64,000 nucleotides of DNA, taken from NCBI GenBank assembly GCA_046351215.1, contig JAXLYX010000009.1, positions 95,758 to 159,757 of the forward strand. The letters run 5' to 3'. The notes under the pieces are model-generated. The model had not been told where the DNA came from. It did not search any database and worked only from the letters and a program-made list of their open reading frames with translations. Both the position numbers and the translations under genes were made by a program. How positions within the stretch are numbered: position 1 is the first letter of the stretch; each line of letters opens with the position of its first letter. Source of the stretch: Polyangiales bacterium (GTDB lineage Bacteria > Myxococcota_A > Polyangia > Polyangiales > Houyiibacteriaceae). Shown here piece after piece: positions 6,163 to 55,109 of the stretch.

Positions 6163-7488
6163 ATGGGAGGGCCGATGGAGGAACGAACGAAGGGGCCTTG
6201 GTACCGCTCGGGGACCTTCTACATCTTCCTCGGGCTCGGGCTCGGCGTGGCGCTCGGGGGCTTCCTCCCGGCCGATCGCCATCCCGAGGCCTACCAGCTC
6301 TTCCGCTTCCTCTCGAAGGCCTTCGTCTCCCTGATCAAGGGCCTCATCGTGCCCCTCCTCGTCTCGACGATCGTGGTCGGCGTGGCGCAGACGGGCGACA
6401 TCAAGGCCGTCGGGCGGATGGGCGGCAAGGCGCTCCTCTACTTCGAGCTCGTCACGACGATCGCGCTCTTCGTCGGCCTCTTCGTCGCGAACGTGCTGCG
6501 GCCGGGCGACGGGCTGCCGCTCGACCGCGCGGCGACCGCGGAGGGCGTGATCCCGCAGCATCCGCCCTCGGGATGGGAGCTCGCCCTGCACCTCTTCCCT
6601 TCGAACGTCGTGGAGCACGCGGCGAAGGGCGAGATCCTGCAGGTCGTCGTCTTCTCCGTGCTCTTCGGCATCGCGCTCACGCGGGTCGGCGAGGTCGGAC
6701 GGCCGGTCGGCTCGTTCTTCGAGGGCGTGGCGAAGGTCATGTTCGCCTACACGGACATGATCATGAAGCTGACGCCGATCGGCGTCTTCGGCGCCATGGC
6801 CTACAACGTGAGCCACATGGCCGCCGGCCACGAGGTCGCGGGCGAGGTGATCCGCGGCTGGCCCGCGGTGCTCTACCTGCTCGGGCGGTACGCGCGCCTC
6901 GTCGGCAGCCTCTACCTCGCGCTCGGCCTGCTCTTCCTCTTCGTCTTCCTGCCCGTCCTCTTCCTCGTGCGGGTGCGTCCGCTCGACTTCTTCCGCGCGA
7001 TCCGCGAGCCGATGATCACGGCGTTCAGCACGGCCTCGAGCGAGGCCGCCCTGCCTCGGCTCCTCGAGGTGCTCGTCGACTTCGGCGTCCCCCGTCGCGT
7101 CGCGAGCTTCGTGCTGCCCGCCGGGTATTCGTTCAACCTCGACGGCTCGACGCTCTACCTCGTGCTCGCGAGCCTCACGATCGCGCAGGCCGCGGGCGTG
7201 GAGATGTCGATCGGGCAGCAGCTCGTGATGCTCTCGACCTTCCTCCTCACGTCGAAGGGAGTGGCCGGCGTGCCGCGCGCGACGCTCGTGATCATCGCGG
7301 GGACCTGCGCGGGCTTCGGGCTCCCGGGCGAGGCCGGCATCGCGATGATCCTCGCCGTCGACGAGGTGATGGACATGGCGCGCACCGTCACGAACGTCAC
7401 GGGCAACGCGCTCGCCTCCGTCGTCATCGCCCGCTGGGAGGGCGTGTTCGGCGTGCCCGACGAGGCGCCGCCTCCGGAGTCGGCCTGA
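6163..7488 (+). CDS. dicarboxylate/amino acid:cation symporter (DAACS, GltP/DctA-like)
   Basis: 441 aa, polytopic. Strings include FLSKAFVSLIKGLIVPLLVSTIVVGVA, FSTASSEAALP, GYSFNLDGSTLY and VAGVPRATLVIIA...DEVMDMARTVTNVTGN. Confidence 0.88.
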   Translation: MGGPMEERTKGPWYRSGTFYIFLGLGLGVALGGFLPADRHPEAYQLFRFLSKAFVSLIKGLIVPLLVSTIVVGVAQTGDIKAVGRMGGKALLYFELVTTIALFVGLFVANVLRPGDGLPLDRAATAEGVIPQHPPSGWELALHLFPSNVVEHAAKGEILQVVVFSVLFGIALTRVGEVGRPVGSFFEGVAKVMFAYTDMIMKLTPIGVFGAMAYNVSHMAAGHEVAGEVIRGWPAVLYLLGRYARLVGSLYLALGLLFLFVFLPVLFLVRVRPLDFFRAIREPMITAFSTASSEAALPRLLEVLVDFGVPRRVASFVLPAGYSFNLDGSTLYLVLASLTIAQAAGVEMSIGQQLVMLSTFLLTSKGVAGVPRATLVIIAGTCAGFGLPGEAGIAMILAVDEVMDMARTVTNVTGNALASVVIARWEGVFGVPDEAPPPESA

Positions 7489-8110
7489 GCTTCGCGTGCA
7501 CCATCTCGCGCAGGGCGCCGATCATCCGCGGGTAGCTGCGATCGCCGAGGAAGCTCGCATAGAGCGAGACGCCGGAGGTGAGCGCGAGCAGCAGGGTGAC
7601 GACGGCGTCGACGTCGGTCCCCGCGGGGAGCTCGCCGCGGGCCTCCGCCCGACGGAGGAGGTCCGAGAGGATCCGATCGGTCCGCACGGGGCAGCGCGCG
7701 ATCGCTCGCGCGAGCTCCTCGTCGCTCCGCATCTCGCGGGCCGTGCCGGCGAGGAAGACGAGCAGGCTCTCGTCCCGCTCGTGGAGAGCGAGCGAGCCGT
7801 CGAAGAGTGCGTCGAGCTGGGCGACGAGGCTGCCCGCCTTCGCGGCGGCCGCGTAGGTCTCGGCGAGCTCCCGCTCCGACGCCCGGAAGACCGTGACGTA
7901 GAGATCGAGCTTCGACTGGAAGTAGTGGTAGAGGGTCGCCGTCGTGACCTCGGCCTCGTCCGCGATCTGCCGGTTCCGGGCGTTCGCGTACCCCTGCTCG
8001 GCGAAGACCCTCCGCGCCGCGCGGACGATGCGGTCGTGCGTCTCCTCGGACGAGCCGCCCTTCGGCCGTCCCGGTCTCGCCTTCTCGCTCCCGGCTCGCG
8101 CTCTCGCCAT
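7424..8110 (-). CDS. TetR/AcrR family transcriptional regulator
   Basis: The N-terminal HTH reads HDRIVRAARRVFAEQGYANARNRQIADEAEVTTATLYHYFQSKLDLY. The R/P-rich C-terminal tail overlaps the 3' end of the convergent transporter gene by 65 bp. Confidence 0.85.
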   Translation of the reverse strand: MARARAGSEKARPGRPKGGSSEETHDRIVRAARRVFAEQGYANARNRQIADEAEVTTATLYHYFQSKLDLYVTVFRASERELAETYAAAAKAGSLVAQLDALFDGSLALHERDESLLVFLAGTAREMRSDEELARAIARCPVRTDRILSDLLRRAEARGELPAGTDVDAVVTLLLALTSGVSLYASFLGDRSYPRMIGALREMVHAKLRPTPEAAPRRARRTRPPSGR

Positions 8111-13540: not shown

Positions 13541-15211
13541 ATGACGATGGTCCTGCGCGGCGTGACGAGCTTCGATCGGGAGACGGACTTCGTGGTGATG
13601 GGGACGGGGGCCGGTGGGCTCCTCGCCGCGATCGCCGCCAAGGACCTCGGCGCGGACGTGATCGTCCTCGAGAAGGCCCCCGTCGTCGGCGGCACGACCG
13701 CGGTCTCGGGCGGGGTGATCTGGATCCCGACGAACCCTCACATGGCCGAGGTCGGCTGCACCGACGATCGGCAGACCGCGATCGACTACATCCTGCTCGT
13801 CGGCGCCGGACGCAGCGAGCGCGCGCTCGTCGAGCGCTACGTCGACGCCGGCCCCGAGATGGTGGAGTGGGTCGAGGCGAACACGAGCGTGCGCTTCGAG
13901 GCCCTGCCGACGTATCCCGACTACCACCCCGAGCTCCCGGGCGGGAAGAACGGCGGGCGCTCCCTCGACAACGGGCTCTTCGACACGAACGAGCTCGGCG
14001 AGTGGAAGGAGAAGCTGCGCAAGAACCCCGTGAACGGCCGCTCGCCGATCACGATCGCCGAGGCGATGCGCTGGGGCGTCTTCTACGATCCGACCGGCTT
14101 CCCGGTGAAGGAGATCATCGAGCGCGGGAAGAAGGGCATCGTCCACGGTGGGGCCTGCCTCTGCGGCAAGCTGCTCCGCGATCTGCTCGCGCGGGGCGTC
14201 GAGCCGATGCTCGAGACCGCGGGCGAAGAGCTCGTGCTCGGCGAGGACGAATCGGTGATCGGCCTCGTCGCGCGGCGCGGCGAGGAGAGGATCGCGATCC
14301 GCGCGAGGAAGGGCGTGCTGCTCGCGAGCGGCGGCTTCGAATGGGACGACGCGCTCCGCCGCGCGTTCCTGCCCATCGATGTCACCCATCCCGTGAGCCC
14401 TCGCTCGAACACGGGCGACGGATTGCGCATGGCGATGAGCATCGGCGCCGAGCTCGGGAACATGGGCGAGGCGTGGTGGACTCCCGCCGTCGTCGTGCCG
14501 GGCGAGCAGTACGACGGTGGCCAGCTCGCACGCAGCGAGTTCTCGGTCCGCTGCCTGCCCCACTCGATCATCGTGAACCGCTACGGCAGGCGCTTCACGA
14601 ACGAGTCTCACAACTACAACGACATGACGAAGCCCTTCTTCCACCACGATCCGACGACCTACGATCGTCCGAACATGCCCGCGTGGCTCGTGGTGGACTC
14701 GCAGTACCTCGAGAAGTACGCGCTGGTCACCGCCTTCCGCGGCCGTCCGATCCCCGACTACATCACGTCGGCCGAGACGCTCGAGGAGCTCGCGGCGAAG
14801 GTGGGCATCGATCCCGTCGGGCTCCGCGCCGAGGTGGACCGGTTCAACGGCTTCGCACGCGAAGGCGTCGACCGCGATTTCCGCCGCGGATGGAGCGCGT
14901 TCGACACGTACTACGGCGATCCGCGCAACGCACCGAGCCCGAGCCTCGGCACCCTCGAGAAGGGGCCCTTCCACGCGCTCCCGATCCATCCGGGGGCGAT
15001 GGGCACGAAGGGCGGCCCGAAGACGACGGTCGACGGCCAGGTGCTCCGCGTCGGCGGCGAGCCGGTGCGCGGCCTCTACGCCTGCGGCAACGCGATGTCG
15101 AGCGCGATGGGCCATGGCTATCCGGGGGCCGGCGCGACGATCGGCGCTTCGATGGTCTTCGGCTTCCTCGCGGCGCGCCACGCGGTGGGGACGGCGCGAG
15201 AGGGCGCGTGA
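13541..15211 (+). CDS. FAD-dependent oxidoreductase (KstD / fumarate-reductase flavoprotein-like)
   Basis: 556 aa. The N-terminal dinucleotide fold reads DFVVMGTGAGGLLAAIAAKDLGADVIVLEKAPVVGGTTAVSGGVIW. The C-terminus reads GLYACGNAMSS.MGHGYPGAGATIG. Confidence 0.85.
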   Translation: MTMVLRGVTSFDRETDFVVMGTGAGGLLAAIAAKDLGADVIVLEKAPVVGGTTAVSGGVIWIPTNPHMAEVGCTDDRQTAIDYILLVGAGRSERALVERYVDAGPEMVEWVEANTSVRFEALPTYPDYHPELPGGKNGGRSLDNGLFDTNELGEWKEKLRKNPVNGRSPITIAEAMRWGVFYDPTGFPVKEIIERGKKGIVHGGACLCGKLLRDLLARGVEPMLETAGEELVLGEDESVIGLVARRGEERIAIRARKGVLLASGGFEWDDALRRAFLPIDVTHPVSPRSNTGDGLRMAMSIGAELGNMGEAWWTPAVVVPGEQYDGGQLARSEFSVRCLPHSIIVNRYGRRFTNESHNYNDMTKPFFHHDPTTYDRPNMPAWLVVDSQYLEKYALVTAFRGRPIPDYITSAETLEELAAKVGIDPVGLRAEVDRFNGFAREGVDRDFRRGWSAFDTYYGDPRNAPSPSLGTLEKGPFHALPIHPGAMGTKGGPKTTVDGQVLRVGGEPVRGLYACGNAMSSAMGHGYPGAGATIGASMVFGFLAARHAVGTAREGA

Positions 15212-16188
15212 GCGAGAGGGAGCGCGTCCTGATCGTGGGCGAAGGCTGCGTCGGAGCCTACCTCGCACGCCAGCTCGCGCGCTCGGGGACCGGGCTCGAG
15301 GTCGTGCTCGCGGGGCGGCCGGGCCGGGTCGAGCCGCATCCGACCGTCGCAGGGATCGTCGCTCGCTACGGCCTCGCGCGCGTCGCCGGGCTCGAGCGTC
15401 TCGAGCAGCGCGCCTTCCGCTTCGTCGTGCTCGCGACGAAGACCTACCACCACGAGGCGGTCGCGGCGGATCTCGCACGCGCGGGCGTCACCGCCGAGCT
15501 CGTGGTCTCGCTGCACAACGGACTCACGCGCCCTCCGCGCACGCCCTGGCCCGCGCCGATGGTCCGCGTGATCACGCCCGGAGGCTACGCCTTCGATCCC
15601 TCGCTGCCCGACGGCCTCGAGCTGCACAACGAGGAGCTGCCCTGGAAGGTCGACGGCGACGGCGAGCGACCGCGTGCGGTCGCATCGTTCCTCTCGGCGC
15701 ACGGCCAGCCCTGCGAGCCGGATCCGCGCTTCGGCTACCAGCTCCTCCGCAAGTTCCACATCAACGATTGCGCGAACCTGCTCACGGTGATCCACGACAC
15801 CGACGTCGCGGGATTGCTCGACGTGCCCGAGCGGGTCGCACGGATGCACCGCATCTTCCACGAGACCTCCGCCGTCCTCGCCGAGACGCGCGAGGTGCCC
15901 GAGCTCGCACGTGTCCTGGACAGCGTCGATCTCGCGGCGCTCGAGGACGAGGTCTTCCGCGGGATCGAGACGTACCGGGCCCATTTCCCGAGCAGCCACC
16001 ACGACTTCCACGCCGGACGCCCGCTCGAGCTCGACGCGCTGAACGGCTACGTGGTCGCGGTCGCCGAGGCGCACGGGCGGCAAGCGCCCGAGAACGCCGC
16101 CGTCGTGCGCGAGACGCTCGAGGCCCTCGCGCGACGGGACGCCGTGGAAAGCGCTCGGCGGAACGCGGTACCCTCGCGGCTCCGATGA
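15208..16188 (+). CDS. ketopantoate reductase (ApbA/PanE) family oxidoreductase
   Basis: This is the C-terminal part of track ORF 13867..16188, starting at GTG 15208. The start overlaps the upstream stop as GTGA. Strings include RVLIVGEGCVGAYLARQLARSG, FVVLATKTYH and SSHHDFHAGRPLELDALNGYVV. Confidence 0.75.
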   Translation: MSERERVLIVGEGCVGAYLARQLARSGTGLEVVLAGRPGRVEPHPTVAGIVARYGLARVAGLERLEQRAFRFVVLATKTYHHEAVAADLARAGVTAELVVSLHNGLTRPPRTPWPAPMVRVITPGGYAFDPSLPDGLELHNEELPWKVDGDGERPRAVASFLSAHGQPCEPDPRFGYQLLRKFHINDCANLLTVIHDTDVAGLLDVPERVARMHRIFHETSAVLAETREVPELARVLDSVDLAALEDEVFRGIETYRAHFPSSHHDFHAGRPLELDALNGYVVAVAEAHGRQAPENAAVVRETLEALARRDAVESARRNAVPSRLR

Positions 16189-17540
16189 TCCGCGAAGCGC
16201 CTCGAGGCCAAGAAGCACCCGTCCTCGGCTCCCTGCCCTACCTGATGCGCGAGGGGATGGTCTCGTACATCGAGCGGAATTGGCGTGCGCGCGGCGACGT
16301 CTTCCGCGCACGCATCGGCTCCGCGGAGTGCCTCGTCACGGTGCATCCCGACGCGGCGCGCGACGTGCTCAAGACCAAGCGCGCCAACTACGTGAAGGGG
16401 CAGGCGTACGACAACTTCCGCCTGCTCGTGGGCAACGGCCTCGTGACGAGCGAGGGCGACGAATGGCAGCGGAACCGGCGCATCGCGCAGCCCGTCTTCG
16501 TGCCGCGGAACCTCGAGTCCTTCCTGCCCGTCATGGATCGCGCGGCGACGCGCATGCTCGCGCGCTGGCGGGCGCGCCCCGATCGCGGGGCGCCCTTCGA
16601 CGTCCACGCCGAGATGACGCAGGTCACGCTCGAGATCGTCGCGGAATCGCTCTTCGGCACCCAGACGGGCGCGGACGAGGTGCACGGCGGGGCCTTCGCG
16701 GACGCGCTCCACTTCCTCTCGGCCCGCGGTCTCCAGCCGATCCCGATCCCCCTGTGGATCCCGACGCCGACGAACCGCGGCGTGCGCTCGGCGCTCGCAC
16801 GGCTCGACGACGTCGTGTACCGGGTCATCCGCGAGGCGCGCTCCCGCGCCCCGAGCGGAGCCCGGAGCTTCCTCTCGCTGCTCGTCTCCGCGCGCGACGA
16901 GATCACGGGACAGGGCTTCGACGATCCGCAGCTCCGGGACGAGGTCATCACGATGTTCCTCGCGGGCCACGAGACCACGGCCCTGACGCTGACGTGGGGC
17001 CTCCTCCTCCTCGCGGACCATCCGGACGTCGTCGCGAGGATCCGCGAGGAGGCCGATGCCGTGCTCGGCTCGGGACCGCTCACGCAGGCCGAGCTCGATC
17101 GCCTCCCCTACACGTCGATGGTCCTCGACGAGATCCTGCGGTTGCGCTCGCCGGTCTGGTCGGTCGCCCGGAACGCGGCAGCGGACGACGAGATCCTCGG
17201 CTACCGGGTGAGGAAGGGCGACACGCTCTTCCTCCCCCAGCTGCTCGTGCACCGTCATCCGGAGTTCTGGGACGAGCCCGAGAGCTTCCGGCCGGAGCGG
17301 TTCGCACCCGGCGCGTCGGCGGGACGCCATCCCTACGCGTACTTCCCCTTCAGCGCGGGGCCGCGGGTCTGCATCGGCAACGTGTTCAGCCTGCTCGAAT
17401 CCCGCCTCCTGCTCGCGCGGATCCTCCGCGAGGTGACGTTCACCGCCGTGCCGGGGCCCGAGATCGTCCCCGTGGCCGAGATCTCGATGCGGCCGTCCGG
17501 GCCCGTGATCCTGAGGCCCGCGTTCCTTCGCGGCGGCTGA
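16185..17540 (+). CDS. cytochrome P450
   Basis: This is the C-terminal part of track ORF 15114..17540, starting at ATG 16185 with an ATGA overlap. The I-helix reads FLAGHETTA, the EXXR element reads LDEILRLRSP, and the heme loop reads FPFSAGPRVCIGNVF. Confidence 0.92.
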   Translation: MIREAPRGQEAPVLGSLPYLMREGMVSYIERNWRARGDVFRARIGSAECLVTVHPDAARDVLKTKRANYVKGQAYDNFRLLVGNGLVTSEGDEWQRNRRIAQPVFVPRNLESFLPVMDRAATRMLARWRARPDRGAPFDVHAEMTQVTLEIVAESLFGTQTGADEVHGGAFADALHFLSARGLQPIPIPLWIPTPTNRGVRSALARLDDVVYRVIREARSRAPSGARSFLSLLVSARDEITGQGFDDPQLRDEVITMFLAGHETTALTLTWGLLLLADHPDVVARIREEADAVLGSGPLTQAELDRLPYTSMVLDEILRLRSPVWSVARNAAADDEILGYRVRKGDTLFLPQLLVHRHPEFWDEPESFRPERFAPGASAGRHPYAYFPFSAGPRVCIGNVFSLLESRLLLARILREVTFTAVPGPEIVPVAEISMRPSGPVILRPAFLRGG

Positions 17541-17584
17541 CGGGATTTGCGATTATGCTCGCGGGCTCGGAGGTTCCCACCGCG

Positions 17585-18352
17585 ATGCATCCGCAGCGTT
17601 TCCTCGTCGTCCTCGCCACTCTCCTCTCGATCGCCCAGGGCTGCTCGATGGGCGAGCCGCCGCCGCCGCCCGCCGCCGCGCACACGCCCGAGCGCGCCGC
17701 GGCGCCGACCCCGCCGCCCGCGGCGCCCACGCCTCCGCCGGCCGCGGCGGCGCCTCCGGCCGCCCCGGCGACGCCGGCGCCGACGGACCAGCTCCTGCCC
17801 CCGCCTGCCGAGGACGAGCGTGCCCCGAACCGCTTCACGGTCGTGCTCGAGACCACGAAGGGGAACATCGAGCTCGACGTCCACCGCGATTGGTCGCCCC
17901 ACGGAGCCGACCGCTTCTACACGCTCGTGAAGCGCGGCTACTACACCGACGTCGCGTTCTTCCGCGTGATCCCGGGCTTCATGGCGCAGGTCGGCCTGCA
18001 CGGCGATCCCCGCGTCACCGTCGCGTGGCGCGAGCACACGATCCCGGACGACCCCGTCGTCGAGCACAACACGCGCGGCCGCGTGAGCTTCGCCACCGCG
18101 GGTCCGAACACGCGCACGACGCAATTCTTCGTCAACTACCGCGACAACTCCCGCCTCGACGGGATGGGCTTCTCGCCCTTCGCCGAGGTGCGTGACATGG
18201 CCGTCGTCGACGCGCTCTTCGGTGGGTACGGCGAGGGACAGCCGCGTGGCATGGGCCCCTCGCAGGGCCTGATCCACGACCAGGGCAACGCCTATCTGCG
18301 CGCGCAGTTCCCGAACCTCGACTACATCCGCAGCGCCCGCGTCGTGCAGTAG
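17585..18352 (+). CDS. cyclophilin-type peptidyl-prolyl isomerase lipoprotein
   Basis: The signal plus lipobox reads MHPQRFLVVLATLLSIAQGC and is followed by a P/A-rich tether. The cyclophilin core reads FTVVLETTKGNIELDV..DWSPHGADRFY.LVKRGYYTDVAFFRVIPGFMAQ.G...GRVSFATAGPNTRTTQFFVN. ATG 17555 is an alternative start. Confidence 0.88.
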   Translation: MHPQRFLVVLATLLSIAQGCSMGEPPPPPAAAHTPERAAAPTPPPAAPTPPPAAAAPPAAPATPAPTDQLLPPPAEDERAPNRFTVVLETTKGNIELDVHRDWSPHGADRFYTLVKRGYYTDVAFFRVIPGFMAQVGLHGDPRVTVAWREHTIPDDPVVEHNTRGRVSFATAGPNTRTTQFFVNYRDNSRLDGMGFSPFAEVRDMAVVDALFGGYGEGQPRGMGPSQGLIHDQGNAYLRAQFPNLDYIRSARVVQ

Positions 18353-18401
18353 GGACGCGCCCGAGAGACGGTCCGCCGGCCCGCTCTGCTACCTTCCTCC
18401 G

Positions 18402-18887
18402 ATGCGCACGAGCGATCCCGGATTCGAGCGGATCGAGGTCGACGGTCAGACCCTCTTCCTGCCCGACGAAGTCACGATCGCGCGCCTGCTCGCGGAGGGG
18501 CGCCTCGAGGGGCGTCCGATCGCGAGCCGCGGGATCTTCGCGCGCTACGTCGCGACGAGCCGACTCTGCCCGGGGCTCCGCGTCGCGCTCGGCGAGGAGC
18601 GCGAGCCGGACAAGCCCTTCATCGTCTACCACGTCGTGGAGACCGCCGACGGACCGTGCCGTGTGCTCGCCGAGGCCCAGGCCTGCTTCCACTGCGGCTT
18701 CCGCGGCGTGACGGCCAACCCCTGCGACTACCAGACGTTCGTCGGCACGGAGGATCCCCTCGCCGGCGTTCGCAGGGCGCGCTCACGGCCGAGCGTGCCC
18801 TGCCCCACCTGCGCCTCGCCCTTCGAGCGGCCCGCGGTGCGCGTCTGGTCGGCGGACGGGGCCGAGGCTCAGACGAGCCCGCGGTAG
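18402..18887 (+). CDS. hypothetical protein with two CxxC pairs (possible zinc ribbon)
   Basis: 161 aa with high GC3. It contains CFHC...C...CPTC. I recognise no family. Confidence 0.6.
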   Translation: MRTSDPGFERIEVDGQTLFLPDEVTIARLLAEGRLEGRPIASRGIFARYVATSRLCPGLRVALGEEREPDKPFIVYHVVETADGPCRVLAEAQACFHCGFRGVTANPCDYQTFVGTEDPLAGVRRARSRPSVPCPTCASPFERPAVRVWSADGAEAQTSPR

Positions 18888-32456: not shown

Positions 32457-34343
32457 TTGGACGAAGTCGCGAAACACGCGTCGTTCCTCCCCGAGCCGCC
32501 CGCATCGGGCGCTTCCGAGGCGGTGACGCGCCCATCGGTCTACAGGCCCGCGCCCGCCCCCCCGGACCGCACCGGACTCCGGTTCACGAGGCGCTTCCAC
32601 CACGCGAACCCGCTCGGAACGCCGAGGGCGATCAGCTGGTTCGGCTTCCGCTCCTTCTGGGGTCATCTCCGCCACTTCATGGCGAGCGCCATCGCCACCG
32701 ACGACGTCGACACGCGCGATTGGATGGAGCCGACTCCCCCCCCGCAGTTCGCCGCCAAGATCTCGAACGAGCTCGGCGCCGAGCCCATGCATCCCACGCT
32801 CGTCGAGAACCTCGGTCGGGATCTCTTCGTCGACTTCGTCGCCGACACGGGCGACGACGGCATGGTCTCGTACGCGGTCGGAAAGATGCTGTTCCAACCG
32901 TATCGCCTCCCGGACCCGCGCGATCCCTCGCGCGAGATCGTCGCCGAGCGGGGCGACCTCCTCGTGCACGGCGGCGATCTCGCCTACCCCGTCGGCACCG
33001 CGAACCAGATCCAGGATCGCCTGCTCGCCCCGTGGAACGCGGCGCTGAAGACGCTCCCCGACGACGGTCGGCCGCGCGTGATGCTCGGCATCCCCGGCAA
33101 CCACGATTGGTACGACGGCATCGACGGCTACGCGCGCACGTTCCGCGAGCGCCACTTCAGCGAGGAGCCCGAGGCGCGCACCGAGACGACGGATGTCTCC
33201 TGGCTCGACACGAGCCTCCGCTTCGTCGGCAACCTGATCGCCGGTCAGACGATGCACCGCGCCCACGCGCTCGTGCTCCACGGGTACCGCACGGTGCAGC
33301 GCGCGAGCTACTTCGTGCTCCCGCTCCTGCCGAACCTCCATCTCTACGCGGCGGATCGACATCTCCGCAGCATCGACTACCGGCAGAAGCGCTTCTTCCT
33401 CGACTGGTGGAACCGCCACCCCGAGGCGGCGCGGCTCGTCGTGCTGCACGATCCCGTCCTGCCCTTCGGACGGCCGAGCCGCGACGGGCTGAAGGTGATC
33501 CACTCGCTGCGTCTCTCGCCGCAGTCCGAGAGCCACATGGTCCTCGCCGGCGACATCCACCACTACCGACGCGAGCGCGTCGGACAGGGCATCCACGTCA
33601 CGGCAGGTGGCGGCGGCGCGTTCCTCCATCCTTCTCCGATCAAGGCGGACGGCGGGCATCCGGCCGAGGTGCAATGGCCCGGTCCGAAGCAGTCGAAGCG
33701 CCTCCTCTCCGGAGTCCCGCTCCACGTGGCGCTCGGGCGCTCGGGGCACATCCCGCACGCCGTGATGACCGCGATCTCCGTGCCGATGCTCGGTCTCGGG
33801 GGCTACGAGCTCGGAGAGGTCGGGCTCGTCATCGCCTCGATCGTCTCGGGGCTGCTCGCCGCCGTCGTGATGGCGTTCATCGGAGGCGTCCGGAAGGGAC
33901 CGGCCTGGAAGATCGCGTTGCTCTCGGTCGCGGCCGGGCTCGCGACCGGCGCCGTGCCCGGGCTCGTCCTCGCGATCGTCGGGCGCCTCTTCGCCACGCT
34001 CTCGCTCGAGGCGAACACCTGGTTCTGGGGAGCCATCGCGCTCGTCAGCGCCGTCGGAACGGGAGGCTTCGTCTTCGGCACCTTCCTCGCGATGCTCACG
34101 TACCTCGGCTACGAGAACACGCAGGCCTTCACGGCCCTCGCGCATCCGGGCTTCCGGCACTTCGTGCGTCTCCGCGTGCGAGAGGACCAGAGCGGAGTCG
34201 ACGCGTGGTGCATCGGCCTCGAGGATCCCCTCGATCCCGAGAGCAAGCCGGTGGTCGTCGACTCGTTCGCCTGGGAGCTGCCGGGGAAGGGCGAGATGGC
34301 GAGACGGCTCTCGATCCCGCCGGCCGCGAGGCCGCCGGGCTAG
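32457..34343 (+). CDS. metallophosphoesterase with a C-terminal polytopic membrane domain
   Basis: The TTG start is uncertain. MPE motifs are FVADTGDDG, LLVHGGDLAYP, GIPGNHDWYDG and LAGDIHHYRR. After these come about four hydrophobic segments (VIASIVSGLLAAVVMAFIGG, IALLSVAAGLATGAVPGLVLAIVG, FWGAIALVSAVGTGGFVFGTFLAML). Confidence 0.8.
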   Translation: MDEVAKHASFLPEPPASGASEAVTRPSVYRPAPAPPDRTGLRFTRRFHHANPLGTPRAISWFGFRSFWGHLRHFMASAIATDDVDTRDWMEPTPPPQFAAKISNELGAEPMHPTLVENLGRDLFVDFVADTGDDGMVSYAVGKMLFQPYRLPDPRDPSREIVAERGDLLVHGGDLAYPVGTANQIQDRLLAPWNAALKTLPDDGRPRVMLGIPGNHDWYDGIDGYARTFRERHFSEEPEARTETTDVSWLDTSLRFVGNLIAGQTMHRAHALVLHGYRTVQRASYFVLPLLPNLHLYAADRHLRSIDYRQKRFFLDWWNRHPEAARLVVLHDPVLPFGRPSRDGLKVIHSLRLSPQSESHMVLAGDIHHYRRERVGQGIHVTAGGGGAFLHPSPIKADGGHPAEVQWPGPKQSKRLLSGVPLHVALGRSGHIPHAVMTAISVPMLGLGGYELGEVGLVIASIVSGLLAAVVMAFIGGVRKGPAWKIALLSVAAGLATGAVPGLVLAIVGRLFATLSLEANTWFWGAIALVSAVGTGGFVFGTFLAMLTYLGYENTQAFTALAHPGFRHFVRLRVREDQSGVDAWCIGLEDPLDPESKPVVVDSFAWELPGKGEMARRLSIPPAARPPG

Positions 34344-34346
34344 CGC

Positions 34347-34458
34347 GCGCGTGCACGAAGGGCGTGCACGTGGACGATGGGCCGTTCACGTGCACGTTCG
34401 GCCGTGCACGTGCGCGTGCACGAAGGGCGTGCACGTGGACGATGGGCCGTGCACGTGC
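34347..34458. repeat. intergenic tandem repeat carrying seven copies of the palindrome CGTGCACG
   Basis: A 39-bp unit, GCGCGTGCACGAAGGGCGTGCACGTGGACGATGGGCCGT, is identical at 34347..34385 and 34412..34450, a 65-bp period. The match extends to about 47 bp with one mismatch. CGTGCACG starts at 34350, 34363, 34389, 34403, 34415, 34428 and 34448. Confidence 0.9.
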
Positions 34459-34494
34459 TCGTCGGCTCGGCGCCTTCCTGCTACCTTCCGCCCG

Positions 34495-34911
34495 ATGGAG
34501 TCCACGGGGGGAGAACGTCGGTACTTCGTGCCGCGTTGGTACGTGAAGGCGGCGTACGCCGCGGCGGCGCTGCAGGTCGCGCTCGCGGGCATCGCGTACG
34601 CGGCGGGCGTCGGTCACCTCGCCCTCGTCTTCCTCGTCGGCGCGGGTCTCGTCGGGTACCAGGGTTACTGGACCGCGACGACGCCGATCGCACGCCTCGA
34701 CGACGAGGGGATCGAGCTCCGGCCCGCGCTGCTCGCGAAACCTAGGCACATCCGCTTCTCGGAGATCCGCTCGGTCTCGACCGTCGACGGGCTCTTCCTG
34801 CAATTCGATCTCGGTACCGATCGCGATCCGCGGATCCCGCTCACGGCGCTCTCGGAGCGTGACGCGCGCGAGCTCCTCGCGACGCTCCGCGAGAAGATCG
34901 GCGCGGGCTGA
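34495..34911 (+). CDS. small membrane protein with a possible bacterial PH-like C-terminal domain
   Basis: Track ORF 34351..34911 trimmed to MESTGGERRYF, because the upstream part only translates the repeat array. There are two hydrophobic helices (AAYAAAALQVALAGIAYAA and LALVFLVGAGLVGY). They are followed by IARLDDEGIELRP...IRFSEIRSVSTVDGLFLQFDLG. The PH-like call is tentative. Confidence 0.6.
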   Translation: MESTGGERRYFVPRWYVKAAYAAAALQVALAGIAYAAGVGHLALVFLVGAGLVGYQGYWTATTPIARLDDEGIELRPALLAKPRHIRFSEIRSVSTVDGLFLQFDLGTDRDPRIPLTALSERDARELLATLREKIGAG

Positions 34912-34959
34912 GGCACGGCGCATCGCGAAAGGTGCCTGCCGAGGGGTGGTCGCGGTCCG

Positions 34960-35670
34960 TCAGCTCGTCTGGCGAGCCGCCTCGATCGATCGTCGGATGC
35001 GCTCCTCGAGCCACTCGGCGCGCGCGTAGTTGTCGACGCTGCCCGGGAGGTGGCCTGGGAGGGCTTCGACGAAATCGGGGGTGTCGAGCCATTCGACGAA
35101 GGATTCCGCGAGGAATGCCCGGAGCTCGGCGCCGGCAGCTCGGATCTCGTCGAGGAGCTCGAGCCGACCGTCGAGGATGGCCACGATGTCCTCGATGTCC
35201 TTGCTCGCCAGGAAGTCACCGCCACCTCGACCCCGAAACGCCTCGATCTTGGTGGCCACGAAGTGCGGAGCATCGACGACCGGCACGCGGGCGCCGTTCG
35301 GGAGCTCCACCGACGACGCGGAAGCGAGGGCCGCTTCGTACCAGCGGTTCGCGAAGCCGAGCACGCGCGCGTCGGTGGGCATGATGTCGATGACGACCCC
35401 CTCGAGCGTCCAGCGGCAGAGGGGAGCGCCTTCGGAATCGTCCTCGCGTGCGCCGAGGCGGCGTAGCTCGGGCCCGAGAGACGTCGCATAGTCGGACATG
35501 TCTCGCACTTCCACGATGAGGTCGAGGTCGAGAGTCGCTCGCGGAGGCGCTGCGGCGGGATCGGTGACGAGCAGCCCCGTGGTCGCACCTCCGACGAAAG
35601 CGATTCGTCGGGGGAGGCTCGTGAGGCGTGCACTCACCGCCATGAGCATGTCGATCGAGTCGCGTGTCAT
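34960..35670 (-). CDS. pol-beta-superfamily nucleotidyltransferase, AbiEii/DUF1814-like
   Basis: This is the C-terminal 236 aa of track ORF 34960..36114, starting at ATG 35670. The NTase motif IAFVGGATTGLLV...RATLDLDLIV fits hGG...DxD. A second motif, ATKIEAFRGRGGGDFLASKDIEDIVAIL, resembles the K..A..R....[RK]D..D element of AbiEii toxins. Confidence 0.65.
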   Translation of the reverse strand: MTRDSIDMLMAVSARLTSLPRRIAFVGGATTGLLVTDPAAAPPRATLDLDLIVEVRDMSDYATSLGPELRRLGAREDDSEGAPLCRWTLEGVVIDIMPTDARVLGFANRWYEAALASASSVELPNGARVPVVDAPHFVATKIEAFRGRGGGDFLASKDIEDIVAILDGRLELLDEIRAAGAELRAFLAESFVEWLDTPDFVEALPGHLPGSVDNYARAEWLEERIRRSIEAARQTS

Positions 35671-36173
35671 GCGGCGAGCAGCTCGCGGAGCGCCGAGGCC
35701 GCGACGTCGCGTTCGCGCGCCGAACCGGCTCGGAGGGCATCCGTGACGGCCAGCAGGGCGTAGAGCTTCGGGTCGCGCGAAGCGGCCTTGGGCGCGCCCG
35801 GATACATCGGCTCGAGCGACTCGCCACGAACGGTTCCGGTGCGGTCGGGCCAGACCAGGGGGATCGCATCCCGAGACACGAGCCGGTCTGCGAGCGGAGG
35901 TGCGGAGGTTCCGGTGGGGAGCCCGCGGGCCATGGCGCCTCGCCTCGCAGGGAAGGCGTACCTCGCCCCGTGGACCAGGAACTCGAGGAGCGCGGCACGA
36001 ACGGGCCTGCGCGCGTCCGGCGTGAGCAGGCCGGACTCGATCGCGCGCTGGGCGCTCTCGTGTACGCCGGAGGCGCTCATCCCCAAGCTGGCGGCGAGGC
36101 CTGCGTAGGTCCACGGCTCGCCCGCCAAGGTCGCGACCTTGAGGGCGACGACGACGTCCTGGGGCTTGAGCAT
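35667..36173 (-). CDS. winged-helix DNA-binding protein, putative cognate antitoxin/regulator
   Basis: 168 aa. The N-terminus MLKPQDVVVALKVATLAGEPWTYAGLAASLGMSASGVHESAQRAIESGLL looks wHTH-like. Its stop overlaps the NTase start as ATGA at 35667..35670. Confidence 0.65.
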   Translation of the reverse strand: MLKPQDVVVALKVATLAGEPWTYAGLAASLGMSASGVHESAQRAIESGLLTPDARRPVRAALLEFLVHGARYAFPARRGAMARGLPTGTSAPPLADRLVSRDAIPLVWPDRTGTVRGESLEPMYPGAPKAASRDPKLYALLAVTDALRAGSARERDVAASALRELLAA

Positions 36174-36184
36174 GGAATCAGGCT

Positions 36185-36201
36185 ATTCGCAATTCGCGAA
36201 T
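36185..36201. promoter_or_regulatory. palindromic operator candidate upstream of the wHTH/NTase pair
   Basis: ATTCGC (36185..36190) is followed by the perfect 10-bp palindrome ATTCGCGAAT (36192..36201). It lies 12-28 nt upstream of the wHTH start codon at 36173, in a locally AT-richer stretch. Confidence 0.45.
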
Positions 36202-36293: not shown

Positions 36294-37268
36294 TCAGGCC
36301 GCCACGACCATCTCGGCCGTCGGCACTCCCTCGGGCGCCTCGGCGCCGACCTGGAGGCTCTGGGCGAGACGGCGCTCGACCGCGAGGCGATCGGCGACGG
36401 CGGGCGCGAGCGCGCGGCCGACGGCGCGTGCGCTCGGGAAGCGGTGATCCTTCTCGCGGCGGAGGAGGCCGGCGACGACCTCGTCGAGCACGCGGGGGAT
36501 GCCCGCCATGCGGTGCGAGACGCGCGGCGCCTCCTCGCGGAGGATGCGGCGGAGCAGGGCCGAGACGCTCGAGGCGCTGAACGGGAGCTCGCCCGTCAAC
36601 GATTCGTAGAGCGTGACGCCGAGGCCGTAGAGATCGGCGCGTGCGTCGACGTCGGGATTGCCTCCGGCCTGCTCGGGGGAGACGTAGCTCGGGGTGCCGA
36701 AGACGCGGCCGCGCTCGCGGTCCTTCTCGTCGAGCGGCGCCGACTCGGAGGCACAGACGCCGAAGTCGAGGACGGAGACGCGGAGCGCGCCGCCCTCCGT
36801 ACGGTCGAGGAGCACGTGCTCCGGCTTGAGGTCCCGATGGACGTAGCCGGCCTGGTGGACGCTGTGGAGGATCGACGCGAGCCGGAGGCCGATCGCCGCC
36901 GCCTCGTCGGGCTCGAGCAGCCCGCGCCGACGGAGCAGGCGCGAGAGGCTCTCGGAGTGCATCCGCTCGAGCACGATGTAGGGCGAGCCGTCGGGCAGGA
37001 GACCGACGTCGCGCACCGGCACGATGCCGGGATGCGGCACGCGGCGGGCGACCTCGGCTTCGCGCCGGAGCCGGCGCTCGAGGTCCGCGTGATGGGCGAA
37101 CATGGGCCGGAGGGTCTTCACGACGACCGTCGCCCCGTCGGTCAGCCGTGTCGACTCGAAGACCACGCTGGTGCCCCCGACCCCGATGGCCGGACCGATG
37201 CGGTACAGGCCGTCGAGCACGGTGCCACGCAGCTCGGAGCGTTCGTCCGTCGACATGGCACCGGACAT
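36294..37268 (-). CDS. Hanks-type serine/threonine protein kinase (kinase domain plus short tail)
   Basis: The Gly loop is IGVGGTSVVF and the catalytic Lys is in VVVKTL. The catalytic loop is YVHRDLKPEHVLL, followed by DFG (LDFGVC) and the GTPSYVSPEQ activation segment. Confidence 0.9.
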   Translation of the reverse strand: MSGAMSTDERSELRGTVLDGLYRIGPAIGVGGTSVVFESTRLTDGATVVVKTLRPMFAHHADLERRLRREAEVARRVPHPGIVPVRDVGLLPDGSPYIVLERMHSESLSRLLRRRGLLEPDEAAAIGLRLASILHSVHQAGYVHRDLKPEHVLLDRTEGGALRVSVLDFGVCASESAPLDEKDRERGRVFGTPSYVSPEQAGGNPDVDARADLYGLGVTLYESLTGELPFSASSVSALLRRILREEAPRVSHRMAGIPRVLDEVVAGLLRREKDHRFPSARAVGRALAPAVADRLAVERRLAQSLQVGAEAPEGVPTAEMVVAA

Positions 37269-51630: not shown

Positions 51631-52768
51631 GCTCCTCGCGCTCCTCGTCGCGCTCGCGCTCGGCTGCGGGCACGAGGACGTGAGGCCCCTCCCGCCGTCC
51701 CCGCCGCGCAAGCCGGACTCGGCGCGCTTCTACACGGCCTCCCACGTGGCCGTCCGCTACGAGGGGAGGATCGACGCGCGCGATCCCGACGCGCCTCGCT
51801 TCGCGTGGCCGGCGTCCGGCTTCCGCCTGCGCTTCCGCGGCACGCGGCTCGTGCTCCGCTTCCGCGACGTGCCGTACACCGACGAGATCCACGACACGGA
51901 CCTCCTCGCCGCCTACGTCGACTCGCGCGCCCCCGTGACCATCCCCCTCGTCGAGGGCGTCCGCGACTATCCGATCGTCGAGGGGCTCCCGGACGGGGTG
52001 CACGAGGTCCGCATCCTGAAGCGCACCGAGGCGGAAGCGGGGACCGTCACCTTCCTCGGCGCCGACGTCGCGCCGGGCCAGCGCTTCCTCGAGCCTCCGC
52101 CGCCGTTCCGTCGCCGCATCCTCGCCGTCGGCGATTCGATCACGGCCGGCTACGGCATCGACGGTCCCGACGCGAATTGCCACTTCAGCGCGGGCACGGA
52201 GAACGCCACTCGCTCCTACGCCTTCCTCGCGGCGAAGACGCTCGAGGCGGGCTACCAGGCGATCGCGTGGTCCGGGCGCGGCGTGTACCGGAACTACGAT
52301 CCGGGGCATCCGGAGACGATCCCGAGCGTCTACGACCGCGTCATCCCGACCGAGCCCGAGCCGCTCTACGATCCCGCCGCGTTCGATCCGCAGGCCGTCG
52401 TCCTGAACCTCGGCACGAACGACCTCTTCCGGCCGCATCCCGATCGGGCCGCGTTCGTCGCGGCGTACGCGGGGCTCCTCGATCGCATCCGTCGCGACCA
52501 TCCGCGCGCCCATCTCGTGCTCGTCGTCGGTCCGATGCTCGCCGACGACTACCCTCCGCACTCGCACGCCCTCTCGAAGGCCCTCCAATGGGTCGGTGGT
52601 CTGGTCGACGCGCGGCGGCGCGCGGGCGATCGACGGATCTCCTTCCTCCAGCTCTACGGTGCCGATCCCGCCGACGGCTACGGTTGTGACTACCATCCGA
52701 GCTTCACCACGCATCGGAAGATGGCCGAGGCGCTCGTCGCGCACCTCCGGGCCCGCGCGGGGTTCTGA
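51605..52768 (+). CDS. SGNH/GDSL hydrolase lipoprotein with an N-terminal beta-sandwich (CE2-like)
   Basis: The lipobox is LLVALALGC. Block I is RILAVGDSITAGYG, block III is VLNLGTNDL, and block V is GCDYHPS. Confidence 0.8.
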   Translation: MRDRALASELLALLVALALGCGHEDVRPLPPSPPRKPDSARFYTASHVAVRYEGRIDARDPDAPRFAWPASGFRLRFRGTRLVLRFRDVPYTDEIHDTDLLAAYVDSRAPVTIPLVEGVRDYPIVEGLPDGVHEVRILKRTEAEAGTVTFLGADVAPGQRFLEPPPPFRRRILAVGDSITAGYGIDGPDANCHFSAGTENATRSYAFLAAKTLEAGYQAIAWSGRGVYRNYDPGHPETIPSVYDRVIPTEPEPLYDPAAFDPQAVVLNLGTNDLFRPHPDRAAFVAAYAGLLDRIRRDHPRAHLVLVVGPMLADDYPPHSHALSKALQWVGGLVDARRRAGDRRISFLQLYGADPADGYGCDYHPSFTTHRKMAEALVAHLRARAGF

Positions 52769-52769
52769 C

Positions 52770-55109
52770 GTGCTGCCGATCCACGCGATCCGCGCCGACT
52801 TCGAGGCGGCGCTCGACGAGGGGCCGGTCGTCGTCTCGTCGCCCACGGGCTCCGGCAAGTCGACGGAGATCCCTCGCTGGGCGATGCGGAGGAAGGGGCG
52901 CGTGCTCGTCGTCGAGCCCCGCCGGGTGGCCTGCCAGAGCCTCGCGGTGCGCGTCGCCGAGCTCGAGGGCACGCCGCTCGGGAGCACCGTCGGCTATTCC
53001 GTGCGCGACGACGCCGTCACGAGCGACGCGACGCGGATCCTCTTCGCGACCCCCGGCATCGTGCTCCGGGCGCGCTCGCTCGTGGAGTCGTTCGACGTCG
53101 TCGTCCTCGACGAGTTCCACGAGCGCAGCCTCGACCTCGATCTCCTCCTCGCGCTCTTCGCGAAGGGGAGAGGCCCGCGTCTCGTGGTCATGTCCGCGAC
53201 GATCGAGGGCGACCGCGTGGCCTCGCACGTCGGCGGACGTCACCTCGAGGCGAGCGGTCGAACGCATCCCGTCGACGTCCGCTACCTCGAGTCGGGCTCG
53301 CCCCTACCCGATCCCTCGGACATCGTCCCCCGCGTCACGCGGGCCGTCGCCGCGGCGGCCTCGGATCCGGGGGACATCCTCGTCTTCCTCCCCGGCAAGG
53401 CCGAGATCGAGGCCTGCGCACGTGCGCTCCGCGGCGGACCCGACGAGCTCCTCCCCCTGCACGGCGGGCTCTCCCTGGCCGAGCAGCGTCGGCCCTTCGA
53501 GCCGTCGACGCGGCGTCGCGTGATCCTCGCGACGAACGTCGCCGAGACGTCGATCACGCTCCCGAACGTCGGCGTGGTGATCGACACCGGGCTCGTGCGG
53601 CAGACCCGCTACCACGAGGGAAGGGCCTTCCTCTCCCTCGTGCCGATCGCCGAGGATTCGGCGGCGCAGCGCGCCGGCCGCGCCGGGCGAACGGGGCCGG
53701 GCATCGCGTATCGGCTCTTCAGCCGGGCGGCGAAGCTCGCCAAGACCACCCCTCCCGAGGTCCATCGCGAGTCGCTCGTCCCGCTCGTGCTCTCGGCCGC
53801 CATGTGGGGCGAGCGCGTCGAAGCGCTCCCGCTCCTCGACCCTCCGAAGGCCTACGCGCTCGAGTCGGCGCGCGAGGAGCTCGTCGCCCTCGGCGCGCTC
53901 GACGCCGGAGGACGGGCGACCGAGCGCGGGAAGGAGCTCCACGGGCTCCCGCTCGATGCCCCGCTCGCGCGTCTCCTCGTCGAGGCCCGCGACACCGGGG
54001 CCCTCGAGGACGCGATCGATCTCGTCTCCGTCCTCTCGGTCGGGCGGCCGCTCTTCGTGGGCACCGGCTCCGACGACTCGACGCTCCGGGAGGGGGATTG
54101 CGACGCGAGCGCGCTCGTCCGTACGCTCCGCGCCTCGAACGGAACGGAGCCCTTCGTCTCTCCCTTCGTGCTCGCGGAGGCGCGCCGCATCCGCGCCCGT
54201 CTGCGCCGGGCCCACGGCCTGGCCGAGACGGGCGCGGATGCAGCGAGCGCCGAGCTCGATCGCGACCGTCTGCTGCGCACGGCGATCGCCGCGGACCCCC
54301 GCTCCGTCCACGTCGCCCGCGTCCGCGGTCGCCAGATCGCCTTCTCGAACGGGGGCACGGAGCTCGAGCTCGCGCGGGAGAGCCGCGTGCGGAACGCGAG
54401 GGACCTCGAGGCGATCGTGGTCTTCGAGTCGCGGGCCCTCGGCTCGGGCCAGGACGCCCGCATCCTCGTGACCTGCGCGAGCCCCGTCTCGCTCGCGGCG
54501 ATCCTCCGTGCCGGTCTCGGCCGGGACCGGCTCGAGGGCGTCTCGCTCGAGAAGAAGAAGGTCGTAGCGCGCATCGAGCGGGTCTACGCGAAGCGCGTCC
54601 TCGGGACGCGCGAGGAGGTGCCGACCGGAGCTCTCGCGCGCGAGGCGATCGCCACGCTCTTCCTCCGCGGGAGCCTCTTCCGGGAGTCGCTCGCGACGAC
54701 GAAGGAGCGGCTCGCGCTCGTCGGCCTCGCCTCGAGGCTCGGCAAGGACGTGCTCGGCGAGGAGCCCCCGCCCGCGCCGCCCTCGCTCGAGGACTTCGTG
54801 CTCGGCCGGCTCCTCGTGCTCGGCATCGAGAGCGGCGAGGACCTCGAGCTGCTCTCTCCGAAGGACCTCCTCGCTCCCGATCTGCCGTTCCACCTGCGGA
54901 CGACGATCGAGCGCGACTACCCGCGCACGGTCTCGGTCGGCGATGCGACCTACGAGGCGGACTACGACCTCGAGAAGCGGATGGTCACGCTCTCGCTCGT
55001 GCGCGGCCAGCGGAAGGAGCCGCCTCCGCTAGCCTACCTTCCGCGGTTCGAAGGCTTCGGCATCACCGTCGTCGGACCGCGGGGCGCGACCGTGCTCCGG
55101 CGGCGCTGA
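52770..55109 (+). CDS. hrpB: ATP-dependent DEAH-box RNA helicase HrpB
   Basis: Track ORF 52596..55109 trimmed to GTG 52770. The Walker A is SSPTGSGKSTEIP, the DEAH variant is LDEFHERS, followed by SAT (MSATI). Other motifs are ILATNVAETSITLP and QRAGRAGR. HA2/OB-like and HrpB-type C-terminal regions are present. Confidence 0.88.
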   Translation: MLPIHAIRADFEAALDEGPVVVSSPTGSGKSTEIPRWAMRRKGRVLVVEPRRVACQSLAVRVAELEGTPLGSTVGYSVRDDAVTSDATRILFATPGIVLRARSLVESFDVVVLDEFHERSLDLDLLLALFAKGRGPRLVVMSATIEGDRVASHVGGRHLEASGRTHPVDVRYLESGSPLPDPSDIVPRVTRAVAAAASDPGDILVFLPGKAEIEACARALRGGPDELLPLHGGLSLAEQRRPFEPSTRRRVILATNVAETSITLPNVGVVIDTGLVRQTRYHEGRAFLSLVPIAEDSAAQRAGRAGRTGPGIAYRLFSRAAKLAKTTPPEVHRESLVPLVLSAAMWGERVEALPLLDPPKAYALESAREELVALGALDAGGRATERGKELHGLPLDAPLARLLVEARDTGALEDAIDLVSVLSVGRPLFVGTGSDDSTLREGDCDASALVRTLRASNGTEPFVSPFVLAEARRIRARLRRAHGLAETGADAASAELDRDRLLRTAIAADPRSVHVARVRGRQIAFSNGGTELELARESRVRNARDLEAIVVFESRALGSGQDARILVTCASPVSLAAILRAGLGRDRLEGVSLEKKKVVARIERVYAKRVLGTREEVPTGALAREAIATLFLRGSLFRESLATTKERLALVGLASRLGKDVLGEEPPPAPPSLEDFVLGRLLVLGIESGEDLELLSPKDLLAPDLPFHLRTTIERDYPRTVSVGDATYEADYDLEKRMVTLSLVRGQRKEPPPLAYLPRFEGFGITVVGPRGATVLRRR

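Follow-up and report, generated by a model that had tools for sequence, protein, structure and literature searches.

The DNA analysed here is a window of 64 kb with a GC content of 72%, whose genes were mapped by GC3 analysis combined with Pfam searches. A metallophosphoesterase gene of 628 aa with a calcineurin-like domain (32457..34343, + strand; PF00149, 23.5 bits), homologues of which are annotated in Polyangiaceae MAGs, is followed on the same strand by a small gene of 138 aa (34495..34911), its partner in all relatives examined. The phosphoesterase homologues and the GC content point to a member of the Polyangia (Myxococcota) as the most likely source of the DNA. The small protein gave no match in Pfam or PADLOC, and its homologues amounted to only three clusters in 5.8 billion proteins (E <= 0.001). 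In the window, as in L133, L149, L150 and L151, the phosphoesterase and the small gene (138-147 aa) form a conserved and often translationally coupled pair, which has a histidine phosphatase gene, giant FecR/VIT/TPR proteins and a Ser/Thr kinase as neighbours. The intergenic gap between the two genes (34344-34494) measures 151 bp, as reported previously, and contains an array of short palindromes.

Downstream of the small gene lie two genes on the - strand, PDC-M21B (34960-35670; PADLOC E = 1e-59) and the winged-helix gene PDC-M21A (35667-36173; PADLOC E = 9e-43), and then the Ser/Thr kinase gene (36294-37268, - strand). The original prediction described the pair as AbiE-like; what is left of that likeness is a weak, sub-threshold resemblance to AbiEii, the strong match being to the PADLOC candidate defence system PDC-M21. 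The pair is missing between the small gene and the kinase gene in L133, L150 and L151, and L149 carries a different gene, of 459 aa, at that position, so that the small gene/kinase junction is an insertion hot spot. The array had also been taken for the possible edge of an AbiE-like accessory island. It is not the edge of the insertion, since the conserved small gene separates it from the PDC-M21 pair, whose insertion site is on the far side of that gene. For its part, PDC-M21A is preceded, about 12-30 nt upstream of its start, by an AT-rich sequence in a genome of 72% GC (ATTCGCAATTCGCGAAT, 36185-36201); this sequence contains a perfect 10-bp palindrome (ATTCGCGAAT, 36192-36201), and the region is a candidate autoregulatory operator of the winged-helix gene.

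The whole array (34344..34462, + strand) comprises seven copies of the octamer CGTGCACG together with the degenerate versions CGTGGACG, CGTTCACG, CGTGCGCG and CGTGCTCG, arranged as arms of 8-14 nt, each of them self-complementary, and loops of 4-6 nt. It begins 3 nt past the metallophosphoesterase stop codon and ends 37 nt upstream of the ATG of the small gene. The seven octamers start at 34350, 34363, 34389, 34403, 34415, 34428 and 34448 (range 34350-34455), in agreement with the number first counted, and their start-to-start spacings of 13, 26, 14, 12, 13 and 20 bp span the 12 to 26 bp initially given. An exact 39-bp unit, GCGCGTGCACGAAGGGCGTGCACGTGGACGATGGGCCGT, occurs at 34347..34385 and again at 34412..34450 (both + strand), with the 65-bp offset that had been described. 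The identity extends no further on either side; when mismatches are allowed, the similarity covers 54 nt at 94%. Between the two copies there is a middle segment of 26 bp (TCACGTGCACGTTCGGCCGTGCACGT, 34386..34411, + strand), which is present only in the two-unit form of the spacer. Five CACGTG motifs were found interleaved in the array, as predicted. It also includes a perfectly alternating pyrimidine-purine, self-complementary tract of 20 nt (CGTGCACGTGCGCGTGCACG, 34403..34422), the longest such run in the window, and a second alternating run of 15 nt.

Tandem Repeats Finder assigned periods of 6, 13 and 20 to the array, and the octamer corresponds to two overlapping CGTGCA hexamers of the period-6 or period-20 repeat. 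The array reads as several stretches of CGTGCA-like hexamers (CGTGCA, CGTGGA, CGTTCA, CGTGCG and CGTGCT), with the loops AAGGG, ATGGGC, TTCGGC and TGCG in between. Three of the seven octamers stem from the 65-bp duplication. Because of this duplication and of the overlapping hexamers, the seven copies are not independent events. Despite this, the cluster is far beyond chance. The window contains 11 copies of CGTGCACG in total, compared with 1.89 +/- 1.21 in dinucleotide shuffles, none of 100 shuffles reaching 11, and the chance expectation is approximately 0.003 copies per 106 bp.

The four remaining copies of the octamer in the window (29007, 32963, 47582 and 60728) are single and isolated, with no surrounding repeat. 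Outside the array, no further match to the 39-bp unit was found in the 64 kb at up to three mismatches, nor was any comparable tandem or inverted repeat found elsewhere in the window. A scan of the window for period-6 CG patterns was uninformative, since coding DNA at 72% GC yields many such runs. Repeats of other kinds include a GC-rich tandem repeat at 17656-17782 (periods 18-45, score up to 119), within a region (15211-18656) where the GC3-based call gave no clear gene, and the longest inverted repeat of the window (54180-54248; 33-nt arms, 85% complementary, 3-nt loop), located inside an ORF on the + strand (52596-55109).

The array is noncoding. The open reading frames beginning at 34351 and 34377 exist mechanically, as had been stated, and the one that starts at GTG 34351 runs on into the small gene. 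A coding reading of this frame was considered and rejected: the hexamer phase is broken by inserts of 1-2 nt, the 65-bp difference between two forms of the spacer (see below) is not a multiple of 3, and in the sister species no other start codon precedes the conserved ATG within the spacer. In the window this conserved start is ATG 34495. The sequence between the array and this codon (34463..34494, + strand; ..CCTTCCTGCTACC.TTC.GCCCG ahead of the ATG) is likewise conserved in the sister species, and no Shine-Dalgarno-like run was found in it. From its position 7 nt before the ATG, the hexamer TACCTT could be the -10 box of a leaderless transcript.

When both strands were folded as RNA, one of the checks proposed at the outset, the + strand of 34330-34500 reached -108.7 kcal/mol (z = -5.8), a value that none of 200 shuffles equalled, and the - strand of the same region reached -89.8 kcal/mol (z = -3.6). 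The difference of 19 kcal/mol is due to G-U pairs on the sense strand only, such as those of CGTGGACG opposite CGTTCACG; on the - strand these positions would be A-C mismatches. The strongest single hairpin (34360..34399, + strand) has the loop AUGGGC and a stem of 17 bp, including one G-U pair that exists on the + strand only, with -33.7 kcal/mol for 34344-34400. Since the arms are self-complementary pairs of CGTGCA-type hexamers, each of them can pair with either neighbour, and the transcript of the array is predicted to form two to three stacked hairpins, starting 3 nt after the stop codon. Two similar arrays from other loci (L141 and L147, see below) each give two or three hairpins in tandem, with loops of 5 nt. 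Among 13 co-directional arrays, the sense strand gave the better fold in 8 and the poorer one in 2, with a tie (within 1 kcal/mol) in the other 3, so that the bias towards the sense strand (8 of the 10 differing cases) is a weak trend.

Known signals were searched for around these hairpins. A consensus scan found no canonical terminator-like sites in 33800-35200. No U-tract is present behind the array hairpins, where the sequence reads UCGGCUCGG, and the array thus falls outside the canonical definition of an intrinsic terminator. The other genes in the window end in simple GC-rich GGGCC...GGCCC hairpins, unlike the array. In mycobacteria, hairpins without a U-tract did not terminate efficiently (PMC3993855), which makes real termination at the array doubtful given that it has no such tract. 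The attenuator proposed earlier found no support either, as there was no sign of a leader peptide, a U-tract or a conserved alternative pairing. A consensus scan detected no sigma-70-like promoter near the array. The Rfam 15 scan of the window yielded no match at gathering thresholds, the sub-threshold hits being only hairpin look-alikes far below the cutoff (E up to 10). The 16-bp parS palindrome TGTTTCACGTGAAACA gave no match with up to 3 mismatches, and the parS half-site-like sequence CGTTCACGTG occurred once.

The same locus was then compared among relatives. An identical 138-aa protein is encoded on nine metagenome contigs. The 151-bp spacer is identical on five ENA contigs and one JGI contig, and also on the NCBI contig L137, whose protein is 99% identical. 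Two Logan contigs (L001 and L009) have a spacer of 86 bp, in which precisely one 39-bp copy and the middle segment of 26 bp (65 bp together) are missing, and a third Logan contig (L006) starts inside the repeat. The 86-bp form was seen only in two short-k-mer assemblies (Logan, k = 31); it may possibly be a one-unit allele generated by recombination between the 39-bp copies, or a collapse of the repeat at k = 31.

The sister species, represented by four independent samples, has a small protein 90% identical and a phosphoesterase 92% identical to those of the window. Its spacer is 56 bp long (TAGCGCGCGCGTCCGCCGCGTGCTCGTCCCC...) and has no octamer, just a short GC palindrome after the stop codon; the final ~30 nt before the ATG are largely conserved between the two species. 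In four more distant relatives, with the same synteny and 43-60% protein identity, the spacer is -4 nt (that is, an overlap; L149), 7 nt (L150), 9 nt (L133) or 40 nt (L151), also with no octamer. Thus, the comparison of relatives that had been suggested revealed that the octamer array is absent from the sister species and from the four distant relatives, and the orthologous-promoter conservation expected of an operator of the flanking genes was not observed. The tightly coupled two-gene operon is thus ancestral and the array a recent addition in one lineage. On this comparative evidence the array is young and lineage-specific, located inside the spacer of an old two-gene operon. Its lineage specificity makes a conserved operator or attenuator unlikely, and any function that it has is not needed by the flanking genes, since all the relatives lack it. 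Compared with the empty site of the sister species, there was no insertion footprint, that is, no target-site duplication and no clean boundary, and the motif is already present in the sequence flanking the additional DNA. Altogether, the octamer array is neither a conserved regulatory site of the flanking genes nor the boundary of a defence-gene insertion.

To place the array in a wider context, similar arrays were sought in other genomes. When 185,579 species genomes were scanned for three octamers separated by short gaps, at least 119 loci were obtained, the chance expectation of such matches being about 0.00025 per 10-Mb genome. Among the matches listed, most were ordinary tandem repeats containing the octamer by happenstance. 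Also among the matches listed was a distinct hexamer-phased group, in which CGTGCA is mixed with CGAGGA, CGTCCT, CGTGGA and CGTACA, and which recurs within genomes. Polyangia MAG 3_bin.16 has at least five octamer-array loci, a Sandaracinaceae MAG and one uncultured deltaproteobacterial MAG have at least three each, and a second uncultured deltaproteobacterial MAG and a Longimicrobiales MAG have at least two each, some of these loci not being strictly hexamer-phased. In one intergenic region of MAG 3_bin.16 (L122:2960-3400), CCCCTG, GGCTCC, CGTGCA/CGAGGA and GGGCAC microsatellites adjoin one another, which suggests that hexanucleotide repeats may be generally common in Polyangia spacers.

In metagenomes, a scan for CGTGCACG-N5-CGTGCACGTGGACG returned 11 loci, only one of which was the locus studied here. 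The arrays at L141, L143, L146 and L147 contain 4-9 octamers (overlaps counted) and have the same build of arm, 5-nt loop and arm as the window array, with which L141 also has the 18-mer GGGCCGTTCACGTGCACG in common. Moreover, a 27-nt palindrome, CGTGCACGTGACACGTGCACGTGGACG, is common to four soil-metagenome loci with unrelated flanks (L138:190-216, L140:253-279, L142:973-999 and L145:1846-1872); in L142 two convergent genes have their stop codons at a distance of 9-10 nt from it.

The gene context of 21 arrays was convergent in 9 cases, co-directional in 11 and divergent in 1 (P about 0.01 for the scarcity of divergent cases), with strand calls at the foreign loci made by a crude GC3 method. 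These loci were picked by octamer patterns, so that the definition of the class is partly circular. Arrays with callable ORFs were found at no more than about 100 nt from a stop codon; this distance is 3 nt for the window array and 6-37 nt for those of L141, L142 and L147. A location behind stop codons and at convergent junctions fits transcript-end or REP-type elements, not operators. Arrays of this kind are spread across soil Myxococcota and a small number of other GC-rich groups; the copy described here is the only one in its 64 kb. Literature searches for the octamer retrieved nothing but primers and unrelated papers, and no description of REP elements in myxobacteria was found in full-text literature.

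Our favoured explanation, to which we give roughly an even chance, is that the array is a REP/BIME-like 3'-end hairpin cluster that grew locally in the operon spacer and acts as an RNA stem-loop barrier on the transcript. REP/BIME elements are intergenic clusters of palindromes to which functions in attenuating transcription and in mRNA stability are ascribed (PMC8266576). Behind the stop codon, a short palindrome rich in GC, like the one still visible in the sister species, would have been extended by slippage or template switching, and a segment of roughly 65 bp would next have been duplicated; recombination between the 39-bp copies would then lead to the loss of one unit. By analogy with REP/BIME elements inside operons, the stem-loops of the operon transcript might form a 3' barrier protecting the upstream phosphoesterase message, and they might attenuate or uncouple the expression of the small gene. 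The effect of the array may be small, and the element is dispensable. The stable fold and the look-alike arrays 3' of genes thus favour the REP/MITE or alternative-hairpin reading of the original prediction, from which the finding departs in that the 64 kb hold no other copy and the site bears no insertion footprint.

A broader proposal, which we put forward as speculative and probably wrong as it stands, is that the array belongs to a REP-like class of Myxococcota (Polyangia, Sandaracinaceae and Kofleriaceae/Haliangiales) not yet described. Such a class would consist of CGTGCA hairpin clusters behind stop codons or between convergent genes, functioning as U-tract-independent (bidirectional) transcript-end or topological elements, and would be spread or renewed by a copying mechanism new to the phylum. 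In very GC-rich myxobacterial genomes, hairpin arrays based on CGTGCA do seem to recur at the ends of genes. To our knowledge, how transcripts end in such genomes, with their few canonical U-tract terminators, is still poorly understood. The relatives without the array, together with the 86-bp and 151-bp spacers of this species, make up a natural allelic series, which would allow a direct measure of the effect of the array on read-through and mRNA stability.

Among the alternatives to a local hairpin barrier, the one that survives best, tentative but a good deal more credible than the others, is that the array is a neutral by-product, namely, a self-complementary hexamer micro-/minisatellite produced by slippage and hairpin-templated synthesis, functionless and tolerated in the spacer. 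Its absence from all relatives, sister species included, its period-6 and period-20 tandem structure and the possible copy-number polymorphism (86 versus 151 bp) are in concordance with such an origin. So are the unrelated hexamer microsatellites found side by side in Polyangia spacers, as in L122, and the many octamer-scan matches listed that are plain tandem repeats. However, similar arrays prefer the 3' ends of genes and convergent junctions (9 convergent versus 1 divergent, P about 0.01), one and the same palindrome of 27 nt is found at the unrelated loci L138, L140, L142 and L145, and the 39-bp copies have remained identical between diverged flanks, all of which argue against mere neutrality.

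We consider improbable the multi-site operator of the original prediction, in which a dimeric protein would bind the 8-bp palindromes cooperatively and control the promoter of the small gene. There are seven perfect 8-bp palindromes, and the window encodes possible regulators in a TetR gene (7424-8110), an IclR gene (5306-6091) and the winged-helix gene PDC-M21A, although the last of these has its own, different AT-rich palindrome upstream. With the last CGTGCACG copy ending 37 nt before the ATG and the possible -10 box TACCTT 7 nt before it, the promoter would have to overlap the array; the sigma-70-like scan, however, found none there. The sites are absent from the sister species and from the four relatives with the same gene pair, and no other octamer cluster exists in the 64 kb, at any promoter region of the window or elsewhere. 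In addition, the spacings of 12-26 bp are irregular, with no helical phasing, and comparable arrays are located at 3' ends rather than in divergent promoter regions.

An action at the DNA level is equally hard to credit: the alternating pyrimidine-purine tracts would form cruciforms or Z-DNA under supercoiling and serve, by analogy, as a topological sink or gyrase site between transcription units, a role proposed for BIME-2 in E. coli. The array holds the longest alternating run of the window (20 nt) and the further run of 15 nt, every arm is self-complementary, and related arrays occur preferentially between convergent genes, a site of supercoil accumulation. The functions listed for REPs also include the cleavage of BIME-2 by gyrase (PMC8266576). 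Nevertheless, an alternating run of 19 nt is also present at 59535, so that the run in the array is not exceptional, and the G-U pairs specific to the + strand favour a reading at the level of RNA or single strands.

Least probable of all, and very unlikely, is a true mobile copy of a REP/REPIN or MITE family inserted by a transposase, since arrays of the same build at other loci of a sister metagenome assembly (L141, L143 and L147, with the 18-mer match in L141) and the multiple arrays per genome in several Polyangia MAGs are outweighed by the failure to find a second copy in the 64 kb, the absence of GTAG/CTAC adjoining any arm here or in L141, L143, L146 and L147, the empty site of the sister species, with no target-site duplication and with the motif already in the flanks, and the absence of a tyrosine transposase among the roughly 25 window proteins scanned.

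REPs are defined as small palindromes of 20-50 nt preceded by a conserved tetranucleotide, mostly GTAG (PMC8266576). They are high-copy and intergenic, are arranged in inverse-oriented pairs with linkers, often in consecutive tandem copies, and are associated with a single-copy tyrosine transposase (TnpA-REP / RAYT) that is flanked by REPs (PMC8266576). In the array, the arm-loop-arm units measure 21-40 nt and have stems of 8-17 bp, each arm (8-14 nt) being itself palindromic, in contrast to REPs. The arms pair over linkers of 4-6 nt and the 65-bp unit is tandemly duplicated, in accordance with the inverse pairs and tandem copies of REPs. On the other hand, the GTAG head is lacking, with no GTAG or CTAC in the array or in L141, L143, L146 and L147, and GTGG occurs in these arrays only within CGTGGACG, inside the arms; the Pfam scan of roughly 25 window proteins, as mentioned above, revealed no tyrosine transposase. 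The array should therefore not be filed as a REP, and is REP-like in its working at most.

Tandem palindromic operators are exemplified by the met-boxes of MetJ and the heptads of the omega repressor. The array resembles these in having multiple short palindromes close together, but its spacing is irregular, it is not conserved across relatives, and neither a cognate regulator nor regulon sites were found for it. According to Higgins et al. in 1988, intercistronic stem-loops reportedly set differential operon expression, as with the malE-malF REP of E. coli. The array is comparable in lying between co-transcribed genes, directly after the stop codon, and in its large negative folding energy, and a similar role might be proposed for it by analogy; unlike in that system, the relatives of the locus have translationally coupled genes and no stem-loop. 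The hairpin-only ('I-shaped') or bidirectional terminators proposed for high-GC bacteria are also GC-rich hairpins without a U-tract behind genes, and the look-alikes of the array between convergent genes fit this picture. The array, however, consists of several stacked hairpins instead of one, simple hairpins of the GGGCC..GGCCC type are what the window's other genes use, and U-tract-less hairpins terminate poorly, at least with the mycobacterial polymerase (PMC3993855).

The closest parallel is with the REP/BIME elements of Enterobacteria, Pseudomonas and Stenotrophomonas. The array differs from these in having no conserved GTAG/GTGG head before its palindromes, in its arms of only 8-14 nt, each fully self-complementary, and in its single copy in 64 kb, compared with roughly one per 8-10 kb for REP. 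It is also found in a myxobacterium, no tyrosine transposase was found with it among the window proteins scanned, and it has apparently grown in place rather than being inserted. Nevertheless, it shares with REP/BIME elements its construction from intergenic imperfect palindromes with an alternating pairing register and short linkers, its location just past a stop codon inside an operon, with look-alikes that favour convergent junctions, the very stable stem-loops of its transcript, and a presence that varies among close relatives.
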